Shown one piece after another: positions 2,859 through 21,609 of a DNA stretch of 64,000 bases. Below the pieces are notes generated by a model. It saw only the letters and a program-made list of their open reading frames with translations, ran no database searches and was not told the origin of the DNA. The stretch is from positions 1-64,000 of IMG/VR virus record IMGVR_UViG_3300013105_000843; one strand, written 5' to 3'. The stretch comes from a virus (Duplodnaviria; Caudoviricetes). Made by a program: the position numbers and the translations under genes. How positions within the stretch are numbered: position 1 is the first letter of the stretch; each line of letters starts with the position of its first letter.

Positions 2859-3293
2859 TCAGTCGATGGGCTGGAGTTCAGCGGGTGCACGCCGCGCGGC
2901 GCCCTCGAGGGCAAGCTCAACGCTCGACACCACACGCACCAGCGGATGGTTTATCCAGGAGCCGATGGGCCGGCAGGACCTGGGCTCGATTACCACGCCA
3001 GGCATGACAACGAATACTGGAATACCTACGGCAATCGCGATTCCCGCCTCGAGATAGGCGCCCTTCAACGGGAAATCACCCTCCTCGGCATAGACAATCA
3101 CGCGCTCGGCGCTCTTCACTTCTGCCTCGATGCGCAACCACAGCTCGGCGAAGTCCGCGGTCTCACCCTCGCCTGCCTCGTCAATCCACGAAGAGACGAT
3201 GTGCCAGCCATCGACGTCGCGCAGGTGCTTCCAGCGCGCCGCCCGCTCTGGCAAGGCGCGGCTGGCGATATAGGTGCCGGCTCGCTTAGGCAT
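2859..3293 (-). CDS. Nucleoside 2-deoxyribosyltransferase-like protein
   Basis: YIASR N-terminus and GAYLEAGIAIAVGIPVFVV motif. Start at MPKR overlaps the upstream stop. Confidence 0.65.
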   Translation of the reverse strand: MPKRAGTYIASRALPERAARWKHLRDVDGWHIVSSWIDEAGEGETADFAELWLRIEAEVKSAERVIVYAEEGDFPLKGAYLEAGIAIAVGIPVFVVMPGVVIEPRSCRPIGSWINHPLVRVVSSVELALEGAARRAPAELQPID

Positions 3294-12352: not shown

Positions 12353-12928
12353 TCAGTTGAGCAGCAGGCGCGAGTGCCTCGGCAGCTGCGCGGCCAGGTA
12401 CTCGTGCTGGTCGGCCAGCACGTTGCGTCCCGACAGGATGAAGTGCTCGGCCCGGTTCGGTACGTACGGCAGGAACAGCAACGGCCGGAACTCATGCACG
12501 GGCTTGTCGCGCTTCGCCTGGTTGCAGTCGAAGCACGCAGCCGTGCAGTTCATCCATGTGTCCGCGCCGCCCGCAGCACGCGGGACGATGTGGTCACGCG
12601 TGAGCTGGTGCCGCGGAAACCGGACCCCGCAGTAAGCGCAGGTGAACCGGTCGCGCTTGAACAGCAGGTCGTTGTCCCGCGGGCTGAGCGGCAGCTCGTG
12701 CCGCAGCCAGCGCGCCGAGACTTCGCTGCCGGCAAGCGCGATAATCGGCTTGACCGTGATGACCGACGATACGCCGAGGCGCGAGGTGCCGCCGCGAAAC
12801 ACGCGTTGTGCGTCACCCAGCTCCCAGGCTACTTTGCCCTTCGCGTACGCCTTCACGGCGTCCTCGGGTGTGAGCCAATCGAACGGCTGGCCCGAGAGGT
12901 TGAGCACCAACACCTGCTGAATCTGCAT
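12353..12928 (-). CDS. HNH endonuclease
   Basis: RDRFTCAYCG, TRDHIVPRAAGG, NCTAACFDCN. Confidence 0.93.
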   Translation of the reverse strand: MQIQQVLVLNLSGQPFDWLTPEDAVKAYAKGKVAWELGDAQRVFRGGTSRLGVSSVITVKPIIALAGSEVSARWLRHELPLSPRDNDLLFKRDRFTCAYCGVRFPRHQLTRDHIVPRAAGGADTWMNCTAACFDCNQAKRDKPVHEFRPLLFLPYVPNRAEHFILSGRNVLADQHEYLAAQLPRHSRLLLN

Positions 12929-14538: not shown

Positions 14539-14616
14539 TGGCTCCCCAGGTAGGGCTCGAACCTACCCGCTCCGGATTAACAGTCCGGCGCTCTACCATC
14601 GATGAGCTACTGGGGA
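14539..14616 (-). tRNA. tRNA-Asn(GTT)
   Basis: Loop CT-GTT-AA, GCCA. Confidence 0.93.
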
Positions 14617-14625
14617 ATTGAAACC

Positions 14626-14868
14626 TCAAGCGACTGGCGGTCGCGTCGCGACGCCATGCGTTTGATGTCTCAGATGGTGAGGGCGGAGAGGCTCGAACTC
14701 TCGCCGACCGGGTAAAAGCCGGTTGCTCTGCCCGTGAGCTACACCCTCGAGTGCCACCTTGTCGGCACGACGCTGCGCCTTGTGAGGCTTGTCGTGCGCG
14801 CCCGCTTTCTTGAAGAGACTGGCGACCACGAACGGGTTGCGTGGTGCCAGCTTCGGTTTTCGCTTCAT
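14626..14868 (-). CDS. Small basic protein whose frame runs through tRNA-Lys (40 codons precede the tRNA)
   Basis: GGAGG RBS, ATGA coupling to upstream ORF, MKRKPKLAPRNPFVVASLFKKAGAHDKPHKAQRR. Confidence 0.65.
   Translation of the reverse strand: MKRKPKLAPRNPFVVASLFKKAGAHDKPHKAQRRADKVALEGVAHGQSNRLLPGRREFEPLRPHHLRHQTHGVATRPPVA
14675..14748 (-). tRNA. tRNA-Lys(TTT)
   Basis: Loop CT-TTT-AC, CCA. Confidence 0.9.
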
Positions 14869-14990
14869 GCGACCTCCGTGTGCTTCATCATGTGCCTGCC
14901 CAGCGGCCGACGCCGGCTGGCGCGCGGCGTGCGCGCGTTCAACCGGCTCAGCTTCCGGGTCGGCAGGTCAATATGCTTGTGCTTTCGCAT
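14865..14990 (-). CDS. Small basic protein, truncated paralogue of the upstream ORF
   Basis: MRKHKHIDLPTRKLSRLNARTPR...MKHTEVA. Confidence 0.55.
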   Translation of the reverse strand: MRKHKHIDLPTRKLSRLNARTPRASRRRPLGRHMMKHTEVA

Positions 14991-14996
14991 AGCCGC

Positions 14997-15182
14997 TCAG
15001 GCGACCTCCGACGCCTTCATCGTGCACGGGCCGTGCTTGCACCCGCAGTTTGCGCATCGCTGGCCGACGCCTACCTTGTAGGCGTCGCAGCGGCCGCACC
15101 AGAACAGGCCCTTGCGGGGCGTTCGGGCGTTGAGCCGATTGAGCTTCCTTGTCGGAAGCTCGGTGTGTTCATGCAGGCGCAT
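14997..15182 (-). CDS. Small zinc-ribbon protein
   Basis: GAGGAG RBS, WCGRCD...CANCG. Confidence 0.65.
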   Translation of the reverse strand: MRLHEHTELPTRKLNRLNARTPRKGLFWCGRCDAYKVGVGQRCANCGCKHGPCTMKASEVA

Positions 15183-15210: not shown

Positions 15211-15288
15211 TGGGGGTGGCTGGTGAGACTCGAACTCACGCATGAGAGGGTCACAGCCTCTCGCCTTACCCCTTGGCGACAGCCACCC
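15211..15288 (-). tRNA. tRNA-His(GTG)
   Basis: G-1:C73 pair, loop CT-GTG-AC. Confidence 0.93.
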
Positions 15289-15737: not shown

Positions 15738-15815
15738 TGGTGCAAGGTCCTGGAATCGAACCAGGTTCTACGGATTTTCAATCCGTCGCTGAATCACCAG
15801 ACTAGCTCACCCTGC
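15738..15815 (-). tRNA. tRNA-Phe(GAA)
   Basis: Loop TT-GAA-AA, CCA. Confidence 0.9.
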
Positions 15816-16591
15816 ATGAGTCGTTCGTAAGCATCTTTCTCGACAACAACTATCCGCTTATCCGGATGTTGCTCCCGCACAAGCTGCATCTTTCGTCGGT
15901 CATTGCCCCACCAGAAGCCCTTGATTTCAAGGTAGAGCTGCTGTTCTGCCAAATAGAAATCCGGTGTGTACGTGCGGTGTTTGCCGTCCATCACGTAGAC
16001 CAAGACGTCACGGTGGGTTCGAAGCTTCGTCCACGCGATTCCCAACGAGGACAACATCAAACCCACATTCCGTTCCCAGGTGCCTTGAACCATCTGTCCG
16101 TCGACCAGATACCATCTGCATCGACCACCATGGTTCTTGACAGAGCGGGCAAGGCTCAACTTCTGGCGCAGCTCCAAAGAGTGGGTCTTTCCCGTGAAAC
16201 TCGGAATGACTTCCCCTGCGGCAATCCGCGCAGCGAGAGTCGCACCAAACTTCGCGACGCGTTCGTCGGTGTCTTTGGTGCGGCCGTGATTCCACGCCTT
16301 ACGGCCCTCGTTGTAGCGTGAGCCTGGCGCGGTGCCTAAGTGCTGTTGCCCTTCGACGGTGTGAGCGCGCCATGCATGTGCAACCACGGCGTTTTTGCTG
16401 CCTACGAAGGAGCATTCGCGACATTGGAACTCGTCGTCGTGCTGCACCCAGGTTACGGCTGCCGCTTTGCTCGCTTCGTATTCCGCCCAGGCCTGTGGGC
16501 CGTGCGCTTTTATGTGTTTGTGCAATCCGTTTGACTTCTTCTCCACGCCACAAACGGGGCAAGCCGCTGTCGTGTAGACATACTTTGGCAT
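15794..16591 (-). CDS. Putative homing endonuclease (Zn fingers, NUMOD3-like region, PD-(D/E)xK domain)
   Basis: CPVC...H...H, CREC...H...H, AWNHGRT, FTGKTHS, YTPDFYL...LEIKG. Lower GC than flanks; stop codon lies inside tRNA-Phe. Confidence 0.8.
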   Translation of the reverse strand: MPKYVYTTAACPVCGVEKKSNGLHKHIKAHGPQAWAEYEASKAAAVTWVQHDDEFQCRECSFVGSKNAVVAHAWRAHTVEGQQHLGTAPGSRYNEGRKAWNHGRTKDTDERVAKFGATLAARIAAGEVIPSFTGKTHSLELRQKLSLARSVKNHGGRCRWYLVDGQMVQGTWERNVGLMLSSLGIAWTKLRTHRDVLVYVMDGKHRTYTPDFYLAEQQLYLEIKGFWWGNDRRKMQLVREQHPDKRIVVVEKDAYERLMQGELVW

Positions 16592-16617
16592 ACGAGGTCG
16601 CCTCACGATGCATTGTT

Positions 16618-16692
16618 TGGTGTGCGATAGGGGAATCAAACCCCTCTTCCCTGGGCGAAAACCAGGTGTCCTAGTCGATAGACGAATCGCAC
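16618..16692 (-). tRNA. tRNA-Glu(TTC)
   Basis: Loop TT-TTC-GC, CCA. Confidence 0.87.
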
Positions 16693-16740
16693 GATGAAAC
16701 AGGTTGCTGCTGGCCAGACCGTGATGAAGGCCAGCGGTGT

Positions 16741-16847
16741 TGGTGCGCAGCGGAAGGAACCGAACCTCTTGCCCATAGGGAACCGGGTTACGGTCGGCCG
16801 AGAGGGCAAGCAGCCACAACATCAGCTCGCCCATATTGGCGCCGCGC
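16741..16847 (-). tRNA. Atypical tRNA-Tyr(GTA)-like RNA with greatly enlarged D arm
   Basis: 8-bp acceptor with ACCA, GGGCGAGC/GCTTGCCC hairpin, loop CC-GTA-AC. Confidence 0.55.
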
Positions 16848-16853
16848 GAAAAT

Positions 16854-16931
16854 TGGTGGGGGAGGCAGGATTCGAACCTGCGAACGCCCTGGCTCAGAAC
16901 GGTGGCTTGGACCGCTTGCACTCACTCCCCT
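16854..16931 (-). tRNA. Degenerate tRNA-like gene, possible Gln(CTG)
   Basis: Good T arm and CCA, but unpaired anticodon stem around TT-CTG-AG. Confidence 0.45.
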
Positions 16932-18875: not shown

Positions 18876-20711
18876 TCAACTCTCGTTTTCGAAGGTGTCG
18901 GCTAGCTCGGTGAGCACCACTTCCAGCGCCTCCGGCCCCACCTCGAACGGGCTCTTCACAATCTTCAGCGGCCCGCGCGCCGCGTCACCGGTCATCGTCG
19001 CGACCGGCTGGGCAGTGCTCGGCTGCTCAACCTGCGGCGCGCTCGCCAGCACAGCGGCCGCCTGTGCCGCCCCTCCCTGCGGCGCCGGCTGACCGGCGGG
19101 GGGCGCGAGCTTGAGCATCGGGCGCGCTTCGAAGTCGCGGTCGGCGTAGTGTTCGGCGATGCGCTCGCGCTTTTTCGGGAACGCCAGCTTGACGCGGCAA
19201 ATCGGGTAGTCGCCCTTGAGCTTGAAGAAGCCATGGAGGTCCTTGAGCCGCTGCAGCTGGACCGGCATGACCGCGCGCTCGGTCTGCACCTGCTCGTTCA
19301 GGCCGGCGGAGCCTCCCGATTCCGATGAGGACTCGCCGCGCATCATGCGCGATACCTCCTTGTCTCCAATATAGGTGGAGATGTATTCGGAGGTCTCCGG
19401 GTCCGAGCAGCGCAGCACCAGCCACGATGACAGGCACGACAGGATGGTCTGAGCGCCCTTCTCGCCGTAGCGGTCCTGGAGTTGCGAAATCGCCTGCAGG
19501 CCAATGAGCAGGCACCCGCCCTTCTTGCGGGCCTTGGTCGCGAAGGCCTCGATGGTCTGCACCTTGCCGATGGACGCGAACTCGTCAATGATGAGCCACA
19601 CCCGACGCCCGCTATTCTCTGGCAGCGACAGGATGGTCCGCGCCGCGACGTCGAGCGCGCACGAAATCATGTTGCGCAGGGAGTCGAGCTGGTCGTCGCG
19701 GTACGTGAGGAACAGGAATCCGGGTTTGCCCGCACGGATGAACTTCGACACCGAGAACGGGTCGTCGCGGTCTTCCAGGTAGGCGTAGGTCGCCAGGTAG
19801 TTCGACGCGATGGTGCGAATCGAGCCGAAGGTGCGCTCGGAGACGAGCTGCGCGGCCGCCGGCGTGCCGGCCAGAAACTGCGCCAGCTCTTCAATGGGCG
19901 CGGCCTGCACGTAATAGAGCAGCTCCTTGACGGACAGGCGCTTCAGCTCATCGAGCTTGCGCAGCACCGAGGTCACGAACGTCTGGGCATACCCGTTCCA
20001 CTCCCGAGCTTCACCCTCGCCGTCGGGGACCATCGACTTGGACATCGCCTCGTCGTGCCCCGGACCGGAAATCTCGGCCGTCGGCGACCAGGGGGCACAG
20101 CGCTCGTCGAACGGGTTCAGGATGCGGTCACGCCCCTCGCGGTAGTAGCGCGAAGCAAACTCGCCGCCTGAGTCGACGACGAGCGCGATGTCGCCGCGCG
20201 CCTCGATATCGTCGAGCAGGCGCGTGATGGCGACCGACTTGCCGGTGCCAGTCGAACCCACGACCAGGAAGTGATAGGGCTCGGCGCTGCGCGGGATATT
20301 CACGCCGGCAATGGCCAGGCTTTCCTCGAAGTCAGACTTCGGCAGCGCCGACGCTGTCTTTCGATTGACGTCCGAGGGCGTGCTGACCGTGGCACCCCGG
20401 CGCAACTTCTCGCGCGGGCGCAGCCGGCGCGCCAGCAGGTTCAGGACAGGGGCGATGCCGGCGCCGAGCGCGAGCCAGGCCACGGTGACCCCGGTAGGGA
20501 GCGTGCCCGGCAATGCGTGCAAGCCCAGCAGGGCCACGCCGATGGCCGCCGCGTAGAGCATCAGGCGGGTCAGCTTCGCTGCGAGCGGAAACCAGTTCAC
20601 CCAGCGTGCGGCAAGCTTGCGCCAGACCGTAAAGAGGGAATACAGGGCAAAGCCGAACAGCACGAGCTGCGCGGGCTCGCTATCCAGCCAGGAAAGGATG
20701 GCTTCGTTCAT
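18876..20711 (-). CDS. traD: Type IV secretion coupling protein (TraD/TrwB family)
   Basis: N-terminal TMs, HFLVVGSTGTGKS (Walker A), LNPFDERC, WLIIDEFASIG (Walker B), GLQAISQLQDRYG. Confidence 0.9.
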   Translation of the reverse strand: MNEAILSWLDSEPAQLVLFGFALYSLFTVWRKLAARWVNWFPLAAKLTRLMLYAAAIGVALLGLHALPGTLPTGVTVAWLALGAGIAPVLNLLARRLRPREKLRRGATVSTPSDVNRKTASALPKSDFEESLAIAGVNIPRSAEPYHFLVVGSTGTGKSVAITRLLDDIEARGDIALVVDSGGEFASRYYREGRDRILNPFDERCAPWSPTAEISGPGHDEAMSKSMVPDGEGEAREWNGYAQTFVTSVLRKLDELKRLSVKELLYYVQAAPIEELAQFLAGTPAAAQLVSERTFGSIRTIASNYLATYAYLEDRDDPFSVSKFIRAGKPGFLFLTYRDDQLDSLRNMISCALDVAARTILSLPENSGRRVWLIIDEFASIGKVQTIEAFATKARKKGGCLLIGLQAISQLQDRYGEKGAQTILSCLSSWLVLRCSDPETSEYISTYIGDKEVSRMMRGESSSESGGSAGLNEQVQTERAVMPVQLQRLKDLHGFFKLKGDYPICRVKLAFPKKRERIAEHYADRDFEARPMLKLAPPAGQPAPQGGAAQAAAVLASAPQVEQPSTAQPVATMTGDAARGPLKIVKSPFEVGPEALEVVLTELADTFENES

Positions 20712-20850
20712 TTTGGTCCAAGCACTGAAAGGTCGCGTAGTGCGACCGCCGGACCGGTATAGGCAGATGAGCGAGGGATGGCGCGCGACGCGCCGCGCAA
20801 ATGAAAACGCCACCCGCGAGAGGGTGGCGCATGCGTGGTGGCGCGCTGGC

Positions 20851-21609
20851 TTAGAAGACGCCCGAAATCACGCGCACCAGGCCGCTGCGCAGCGGGGTCA
20901 CCGCTTCGCCGAAGTCGAGGTTGACCTTGTTCGCGACGCTCATCACGCGCGTCTGGTAGGTGCGGTAATCGCTATCCTCGTTGTACGTCACCGTCGTGCC
21001 GCCGCTGTTGCCCTGGTGCAGGTTGTGCACCGAGCTTTCGTGGCTCTTCACACCGCTGCGCTGGCGTTCGCGAATCATCACGTCCGTGATGGCCGTGTAG
21101 TAGACGTCCTTGACGGCCGCGTTGGCGACCATCTCGGCCAGGCCGGTGACGAGCCCCGCGGCGAGAATCGGGCCGCCGTGGGTTGCGCCCATGCCCACCG
21201 CGGCGCCTGCCCCCAGGAACGCGGCGCCGAGCGGCGCGCCGTAGCCGCCGAAGGCCATCCGCGCGGCCGACGGCGTCACCTTGCCGACCTGCAGGATGTT
21301 CGCCTGCAGGATGAACTGCGCCTGGTCCGGGTCGCTGACGACGCGGTAGCCTTTGGCAGCGACGGCGGCCGACACGTCAGACGCGATATCGAAATCCGGC
21401 TTGTCGGAGGTATTGCGGACCTGCACGTAGATGGTACGTTTCGCGGCCGCGGTCGGCTCGAGGAAGATGGTATCGGACATCCGCGTCTGGACATCCAGGT
21501 TGCGTTTTTCAATCGCTATCTGTGTGGCTGCGCAGCCGGACAGCAGGCTGGTCTAACCGATGGCGGCCAGGACGGTTGCGACGAAAATGGTCTTCGCGTG
21601 AAATTTCAT
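20851..21609 (-). pseudogene. traT: TraT surface-exclusion lipoprotein with an in-frame TAG at codon 19
   Basis: MKFHAKTIFVATVLAAIG*TSLLSGC (lipobox)...RNLDVQTRMSDTIFLEP...TRVMSVANKVNLDF. Confidence 0.85.

Follow-up and report, generated by a model that had tools for sequence, protein, structure and literature searches.

The ORF-bearing spacer of the tRNA array

The window, i.e. the whole stretch of DNA that was analysed, comprises 64,000 nucleotides of the IMG/VR record IMGVR_UViG_3300013105_000843. It holds 33 tRNA genes, which are located on the (-) strand between 7485 and 18183. One spacer of this array is bounded upstream by tRNA-His(GUG) (15211-15287, (-), found by ARAGORN and Infernal) and carries an operon of three small open reading frames (ORFs). 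ORF A (14997-15182, (-)) heads the operon and encodes 61 aa with a CxxC...CxxC pattern; it is followed by the small basic ORF B of 41 aa (14865-14990, (-)) and by the ORF under study, which starts with the ATG at 14868-14866. A GGAGG Shine-Dalgarno sequence, read directly from the DNA, lies at 14877-14873 (-), 4 nt ahead of this start codon. The ORF consists of 40 sense codons (14749-14868, (-)), recognized by its translation, family profile and coding signal. Its translation, MKRKPKLAPRNPFVVASLFKKAGAHDKPHKAQRRADKVAL, contains 8 K, 4 R, 2 H and 2 D.

These 40 codons have no stop of their own. Codon 41 (GAG) begins at 14748, which is nucleotide 1 of tRNA-Lys(UUU) (14675-14748, (-), by ARAGORN). 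Infernal with the tRNA model RF00005 places model positions 1-71 at 14748-14678 with a score of 61.6 bits, and the CCA end is encoded. The tRNA has a cloverleaf, the anticodon UUU and a defined 5' end, from which the presumed RNase P site is placed between 14749 and 14748 (-). The frame of the small ORF stays open through the tRNA up to a stop at 14628-14626, which gives the 80-aa ORF of the ORF list. Its read-through part (14626-14748, (-)), i.e. the tRNA and a spacer read as codons, is unconserved as protein, judging from the tails of the homologues. The next tRNA past tRNA-Lys is tRNA-Asn(GUU) (14539-14616, (-), by ARAGORN).

The original prediction had described a strong ribosome-binding site, 40 basic codons and a codon 41 starting at tRNA +1 (14748). 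This description is exact, and ARAGORN and Infernal agree on the tRNA. By itself, the junction in the window is within chance, because the window has 62% G+C, many long spurious frames cross its tRNAs, and the prior chance of a frame matching tRNA +1 is 1-in-3. The significance of the junction comes from the comparison with homologues.

The TGA of ORF B overlaps the ATG of the small ORF (ATGA), which suggests translational coupling of the two. ORFs A and B (14865-15182, (-)) are basic paralogues with the common motif LPTRKLxRLNARTPR and a C-terminal (S/T)EVA, and the codons of (S/T)EVA form the GGAGGTCGC Shine-Dalgarno sequence of the following ORF. The LPTRKLxRLNARTPR motif was seen in the window locus alone, and genes of the ORF A/B type were therefore rejected as part of a conserved module. 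ORF A has three relatives of 61-62 aa and a weak match to phrog_32271 (E = 0.021).

Two further genes inside the tRNA array of the window encode an HNH endonuclease (12353-12928, (-)) and a protein whose C-terminus resembles phage endonuclease I (15794-16921, (-)). The array, which resembles that of the plasmid pM7012, directly adjoins genes for conjugation, namely those of a TraD-type coupling protein (18876-20813) and of TraT (20851-21480). IMG/VR labels the 129.6-kb record as a provirus. With these two genes next to the array, the label looks doubtful, and the better match is an element of the pM7012 kind, either a conjugative plasmid or an ICE. The same protein is also on record on a 417.8-kb contig.

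The protein family of the small ORF

A word-indexed search with the peptide retrieved 20 relatives. An exhaustive profile search with the 40-column core retrieved 875 representatives at E <= 1e-3, with 145 of them at E <= 1e-10 and E-values reaching down to 1e-18. The core is N-terminal in almost all of the 875 representatives, and the total lengths of these proteins are 44-176 aa. In an alignment of 19 core sequences, LAPRNP, V14, AG-x-H and R33 are invariant. The family consensus of the C-terminal motif is RKAGAHxKxxKAxRR, with RKAGAH or RKGGAH variants.

At the DNA level, the core behaves as a coding sequence. Across 21 distinct DNA copies, the entropy by codon position 1/2/3 is 0.65/0.56/1.42, and pN/pS is 0.38 in frame as compared with 1.34 and 1.63 off frame. 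A GGAG-type Shine-Dalgarno sequence stands in the same place ahead of the start codon in nearly every homologous locus. Judged from these comparisons, the amino-acid sequence of the peptide is under purifying selection, and the 40-codon ORF is a real gene for a trans-acting, very basic protein of ~40 aa that belongs to a large unannotated family.

Scans of Pfam, PHROGs and NCBIfam with the peptide and eight relatives gave nothing meaningful, and a profile search of all PDB chain sequences with the family gave no match at E <= 10. A search of the ESM Atlas returned unnamed clusters of 46-54 aa only. No relatives of the small ORF were found in a scan of viral contigs. The AlphaFold2 model of the core consists of two short helices with a pLDDT of 69 and is, at this low confidence, uninformative.

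The stop-less junction with tRNA-Lys in relatives

Ten distinct tRNA-linked loci were checked at the DNA level, namely the window, L001, L002, L004-L007, L012 and L019, with tRNAs called by ARAGORN, and L017, with the tRNA called by Infernal. The downstream tRNA is tRNA-Lys(UUU) in all ten, and none of them has an in-frame stop ahead of it; the distance from the start codon to +1 is 117-126 nt. The expectation that homologues would likewise abut a tRNA without a stop codon is thus confirmed, and normal stops before the tRNA are absent. Beyond the conserved RRxxK there are 2-4 codons to the tRNA in every locus, and the other spacers of these tRNA arrays measure from 6 to >700 nt. In L001, L002, L006 and L019, just 29-47 nt separate the end of an upstream tRNA from the ATG, and the entire message of these loci is therefore an inter-tRNA spacer.

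The remainder at tRNA +1 is 0 or 1 nt in the ten loci, and all three frames occur among the representatives. At least 72 of 161 retrieved proteins by a conservative pattern, and ~95 by eye, have a tail that is the tRNA read in any of three frames. The tail motifs AFT/AFN, RLLT/RLLP and GFYP all correspond to the CUUUUAC/A anticodon loop, and the tails of homologues diverge directly past the core. Since the tails read the tRNA in any frame, the exact frame at +1, emphasized in the original prediction, is, at the sequence level, incidental, and the missing stop is the conserved feature.

The sequences of tRNA-Lys have diverged among the loci, and a stop or spacer never intervenes between ORF and tRNA. 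From this divergence it follows that the ORF-tRNA-Lys module is old. A megablast search found the same module on plasmid pM7012 of Burkholderia sp. M701 and on a plasmid of Pandoraea pnomenusa (79% identity over 277 nt), and metagenome contigs supplied further tRNA-linked copies. The tRNA-Lys(UUU)-tRNA-Asn order is common to the window, pM7012 and the Pandoraea plasmid. The link with tRNA-Lys(UUU) may be constant because these loci all inherited a single module, and not because it was selected repeatedly.

Some arrays have decayed remnants of tRNA-Lys past the core (L008-L011, at about 573-640; L017, at 3072-3134). These remnants keep the acceptor stem, a T-arm-like hairpin and CCA, and the other arms are lost. 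The L017 remnant is a 63-nt tRNA with 36.5 bits; those of L008 and L010 were detected by neither Infernal nor ARAGORN. The surviving parts are what an RNase P minihelix substrate would need.

Hairpins, terminators and ordinary stops in other relatives

Free-standing copies of the gene, with no tRNA, have ORFs of 67-82 aa (L003/L014, L015/L018 and L013/L020). All six of these loci contain an in-ORF hairpin of 20-30 bp that starts from codon 45-51, with z of -2.7 to -5.2 against dinucleotide shuffles, and the stop codon is located inside or after its 3' arm. A U-run stands directly past the hairpin in L003 and L015, and a terminator-like site spans the stop in L003. In the locus L033, a 13-bp GC-rich stem (1629-1661) is followed by T7, and the TAA (1675-1677) comes 8 nt later. 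This arrangement, which was missed by a simple terminator scanner and is plain in the sequence and fold, is by its sequence an in-ORF intrinsic terminator of the brfA kind. Hence the expectation that homologues might end at such elements also held for relatives without a tRNA, which end in in-ORF hairpins or terminators in the style of arfA and brfA.

One hairpin subfamily, represented by five DNAs, shows compensatory double changes in 6 of 23 pairs. The 39 chromosomal copies, drawn from two genome samples, show a bimodal distribution of tail lengths. An in-ORF hairpin of dG <= -20 is present in 16 of the 20 copies that have at least 18 codons past the core, as compared with 36 of 111 control ends, i.e. 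the ends of long frames at these loci (Fisher p = 1e-4). Where 5-13 extra codons follow the core, the gene ends in an ordinary stop and then a terminator. The same analysis of genuine arfA genes gave hairpins from codons 44-56 to 64-75. Because the background rate of hairpins in these GC-rich genomes is high (32% of control gene ends), the evidence from in-ORF hairpins is supportive rather than conclusive.

Normal stops occur in L074 (46 aa), L075/76 (45 aa), L077/78 (47 aa), L022/23 (43 aa) and L024 (53 aa), and an ordinary stop with a terminator was found in about 14 of the 39 chromosomal copies. L077/78 stand beside DNA ligase and ribonucleotide reductase genes and are thus phage-like. The copies with normal stops fix the size of the predicted functional protein at roughly 40-50 aa. 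Within the family, the non-stop layout appears to be common without being obligatory, which also holds for the known rescue factors (PMC6299226). Judged by sequence, the architecture of the gene in the window is that of the ArfA/BrfA class, with a putative stop-removing element at the end of the ORF.

Distribution and genomic neighbours

Members of the family were found in 12 of 401 genomes sampled from the class, and in 48 of 401 (~12%) from the order containing Niveibacterium. Canonical ArfA was found in 5 of 400 genomes of the class and 3 of 401 of the order, and it was not found in Niveibacterium. No genome contained both the family and ArfA, the expected overlap being just 0.15 (class) and 0.36 (order), so that the lack of overlap is no more than chance would give.

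Of 40 chromosomal loci, 12 have rtcB, the gene of the RNA-repair ligase RtcB, within 1.5 kb upstream of the small ORF on the same strand, with gaps of 0-71 nt in most of them. Seven tight rtcB pairs have the in-ORF hairpin design. The arrangement looks like an undescribed rtcB-peptide operon. The rtcB-linked chromosomal loci include L033, L028, L089, L090, L095, L096, L102, L103 and L108, which are of the Burkholderiales type. RtcB is also adjacent in L022/23, L079 and L080. Many copies of the family have no RtcB nearby, and RtcB is absent from the record of the window and from both related plasmids. The surroundings of L003 and L014 are of the housekeeping type, with the gene of a PHO4 (phosphate) transporter on one side and that of an M24 peptidase on the other.

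Genes for HNH nucleases, Fic and RelE-like proteins are found repeatedly near members of the family. An HNH gene neighbours a family member in unrelated contigs, e.g. L079. In two unrelated metagenome contigs, L013 (2342-2929) and L020 (2209-2907), a fusion of a GIY-YIG nuclease with a HU-type DNA-binding domain is encoded directly upstream of the free-standing copy. A regulator with HTH_3 and Peptidase_M78 domains (ImmA/IrrE-like) is located immediately upstream of the hairpin-type copy in L015 (768-2012) and L018 (78-1292). This neighbour suggests a stress- or SOS-type switch on mobile elements.

The window also contains a release factor (RF)-like gene (4-498, (-)) encoding 165 aa. It matches the C-terminal half of RF1 best (NCBIfam, 151 bits, far below the full-length cut-off), scores 65 bits against PrfH (cut-off 167), and keeps just the last 27 positions of the PCRF domain. 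It had been proposed that the small protein might partner this domain-1-less RF. No RF-domain gene was found beside any of 46 related loci, nor an RF gene anywhere on the two complete related plasmids, pM7012 and that of Pandoraea. Since these loci and plasmids have no RF gene, the partnership is not conserved, and an element-encoded RF as an obligatory partner was rejected as a conserved feature.

Comparison with known rescue factors

ArfA is taken here to be the alternative ribosome-rescue factor A, i.e. PF03889 and E. coli yhdL. The peptide has no Pfam match to the ArfA profile even at E <= 10, and an hhalign comparison of 161 cores of the family with 30 genuine ArfA sequences gave a probability of 0.2% and E = 0.35 over 8 aligned columns. 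The ArfA motif KGKGS(Y/F) is absent from the family, which has RKAGAHxKxxKAxRR in its place; K[GA][KR]G[SA][YFW] was found in all 30 ArfA controls. The likeness lies elsewhere: both are small basic proteins with a conserved N-terminal part of ~40-55 aa, and in both the ORF runs into an RNA structure, which removes the stop in arfA and is predicted to do so in the family. In the free-standing relatives, this structure is a hairpin from codon 45-51, as compared with codon 44-56 in the arfA controls, and in some genomes the gene occupies a housekeeping chromosomal site, as arfA does. The two differ in the device, which is an RNase III hairpin in arfA and would be a tRNA (RNase P) in the window. 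By sequence, the resemblance to ArfA is one of logic, not of descent. Of the ArfA-like logic that had been proposed, the stop-less architecture stands; homology to ArfA, which the original prediction had not claimed, was not found, and a sizeable minority of relatives have ordinary stops.

The proteins known to come from programmed non-stop mRNAs, ArfA and BrfA, both serve in ribosome rescue (PMC6881298). By exploiting non-stop ends, the arfA and brfA genes restrict accumulation of the factor to conditions in which trans-translation fails (PMC6881298, PMC10107115). BrfA of B. subtilis depends on RF2 and has an mRNA ended by an in-ORF terminator (PMC6881298), a design that L033 resembles. It differs in lineage, the present family being found in Pseudomonadota and their mobile elements, and also from the window copy, which has no terminator. 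No sequence relation to BrfA emerged from the profile search of PDB chains at E <= 10, in which the BrfA chain is assumed to be included, or from Pfam and NCBIfam.

ArfT of Francisella is a protein of 40 aa that works with RF1 or RF2 (PMC6299226). The likeness, judged by eye, is in this size and in a basic Gly-containing C-terminus, KKGGSTNKK in ArfT and RKAGAH...K..KA.RR in the family. Unlike the stop-less copies described here, ArfT appears to have a normal stop and not to be tmRNA-gated, and it is known from Francisella only (PMC6299226).

Some RtcB operons encode the ribosome-rescue factor PrfH, which acts before repair (PMC9304027). The RtcB2-PrfH system (PMC9304027, PMC9223846), which adds a factor for stalled ribosomes to an rtcB operon, resembles the rtcB-linked loci, the family standing directly downstream of rtcB in the 12 of 40 loci. 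The difference is that the rtcB-linked product in these loci is a 40-aa peptide that lacks a GGQ domain and not an RF homologue. The window locus itself is not a PrfH module: the peptide has no RF domain, the RF-like ORF scores below the PrfH cut-off, and the record has no RtcB.

With the tRNA arrays of plasmids and phages (pM7012 and the Pandoraea pnomenusa plasmid) the window shares both the Lys-Asn order and the ORF-tRNA-Lys module. The small ORF is absent from the gene tables available for these two plasmids, the PLSDB tables being incomplete. A literature search found no paper on a coding spacer in tRNA arrays or on a regulatory non-stop mRNA generated by RNase P.

Proposed mechanism and alternative explanations

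RNase P cleaves pre-tRNA at +1, and ribosomes that reach a 3' end without a stop codon are substrates of tmRNA-SmpB. From this tRNA biology, a cut at +1 of tRNA-Lys would leave an mRNA that ends in the last sense codon of the small ORF. [quoted passage not shown] By analogy with arfA and brfA, tmRNA-SmpB would tag the peptide for degradation as long as trans-translation capacity is to spare, and untagged peptide would accumulate only when tmRNA is saturated or damaged. The accumulated peptide could rescue stalled ribosomes: it would probe the vacant mRNA channel with its Lys/Arg-rich C-terminal half and recruit a release factor of the host. In a more cautious version, the peptide would be some effector of the response to translation or RNA damage. 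In relatives, either a long hairpin or an intrinsic terminator within the ORF would lead to the same stop-less state. In the setting of a mobile tRNA array, rescue would complement tRNA replacement under attack by anticodon nucleases or ribotoxins.

With a probability of about one half, judged from sequence and from the analogy with known factors, the small ORF encodes a small, tmRNA-gated protein with a part in the response to translation damage, which is probably an alternative rescue factor of a new kind and whose stop is removed in a new way, by RNase P cleavage. A wider proposal is put forward more tentatively. It holds that the ~40-aa family, with at least 875 clusters and an occurrence in ~12% of the genomes sampled from the proteobacterial order, on plasmids and on phage-like contigs, is a new class of rescue factors that is tmRNA-gated by three interchangeable devices; that it provides the first case of tRNA 5' processing producing a regulatory non-stop mRNA; and that it may be the missing RtcB rescue partner of many bacteria and may serve mobile tRNA arrays as an accessory for counter-defence.

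Several other readings of the locus were weighed. That there is no gene at all, and a chance open frame crosses a GC-rich tRNA spacer, would suit a window full of long spurious ORFs over tRNAs; it is effectively refuted by the codon-position pattern, the pN/pS values, the conserved Shine-Dalgarno sequence and start codon, and the number of representatives (875, with E to 1e-18). The ORF could also act in cis as a leader, with its translation sensing the supply of tRNA-Lys and modulating the processing or transcription of tRNA-Lys(UUU) and the peptide having no function. The richness of the ORF in AAG and AAA (8 Lys codons in 40) and the constant tRNA-Lys(UUU) downstream in arrays (10/10) would agree with such a role. 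This explanation is nonetheless very improbable, given the purifying selection on the amino-acid sequence and given that the protein is conserved also where no tRNA is nearby, in loci of the free-standing, RtcB-linked and phage-like types.

A further explanation takes the product as an ordinary small basic protein, e.g. one binding ribosomes or nucleic acids, and the loss of the stop as a tolerated by-product of compaction, with translation of unprocessed precursors ending at whatever stop happens to lie in or past the tRNA or hairpin. Homologues of 43-53 aa with normal stops, as found here, agree with this account, and hairpins are frequent in GC-rich DNA. However, three structurally unrelated devices all begin close to where the core ends, at most a few codons away, the tails are unconserved as protein and use all three tRNA frames, the distance from core to tRNA is held at 2-4 codons in 10/10 loci while other spacers vary from 6 to >700 nt, and one hairpin subfamily has compensatory changes. 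Taken with these observations, an ordinary protein is unlikely. Somewhat less unlikely is an accessory peptide of RNA repair or of tRNAs, which would bind broken tRNA, rRNA or RtcB and aid ligation or protect tRNAs instead of rescuing ribosomes; the non-stop layout might still gate it via tmRNA. The same-strand rtcB upstream in 12/40 loci fits a repair role equally well, the ORF resides inside tRNA arrays with HNH nucleases, and its very basic composition would suit RNA binding. Against this, many copies have no RtcB nearby, such as L003 and L014, as do the record of the window and the two plasmids, and tmRNA gating has a clear rationale for a rescue factor and no obvious one for a ligase cofactor.

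Implications

To our knowledge, the known solutions to non-stop rescue are few, namely tmRNA, ArfA, ArfB, ArfT, BrfA, RqcH and PrfH, and we know of no identified back-up in many bacteria with a dispensable ssrA. If the function as a tmRNA-gated rescue factor holds, the small ORF represents a new family and a new device within the ArfA/BrfA type of regulation. The family would then fill part of the back-up gap in bacteria of the Burkholderiales type, of which only 3 of the 401 genomes sampled yielded an ArfA. Since antibiotics are aimed at rescue pathways, an unrecognised bypass would matter for such work. In the rtcB-linked loci, RNA repair by RtcB would be tied to ribosome rescue beyond PrfH. 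The making of a non-stop mRNA by tRNA processing would be a new regulatory principle. It would also give a reason for coding spacers in mobile tRNA arrays, which could combine tRNA replacement with ribosome rescue during attack by anticodon nucleases or ribotoxins.
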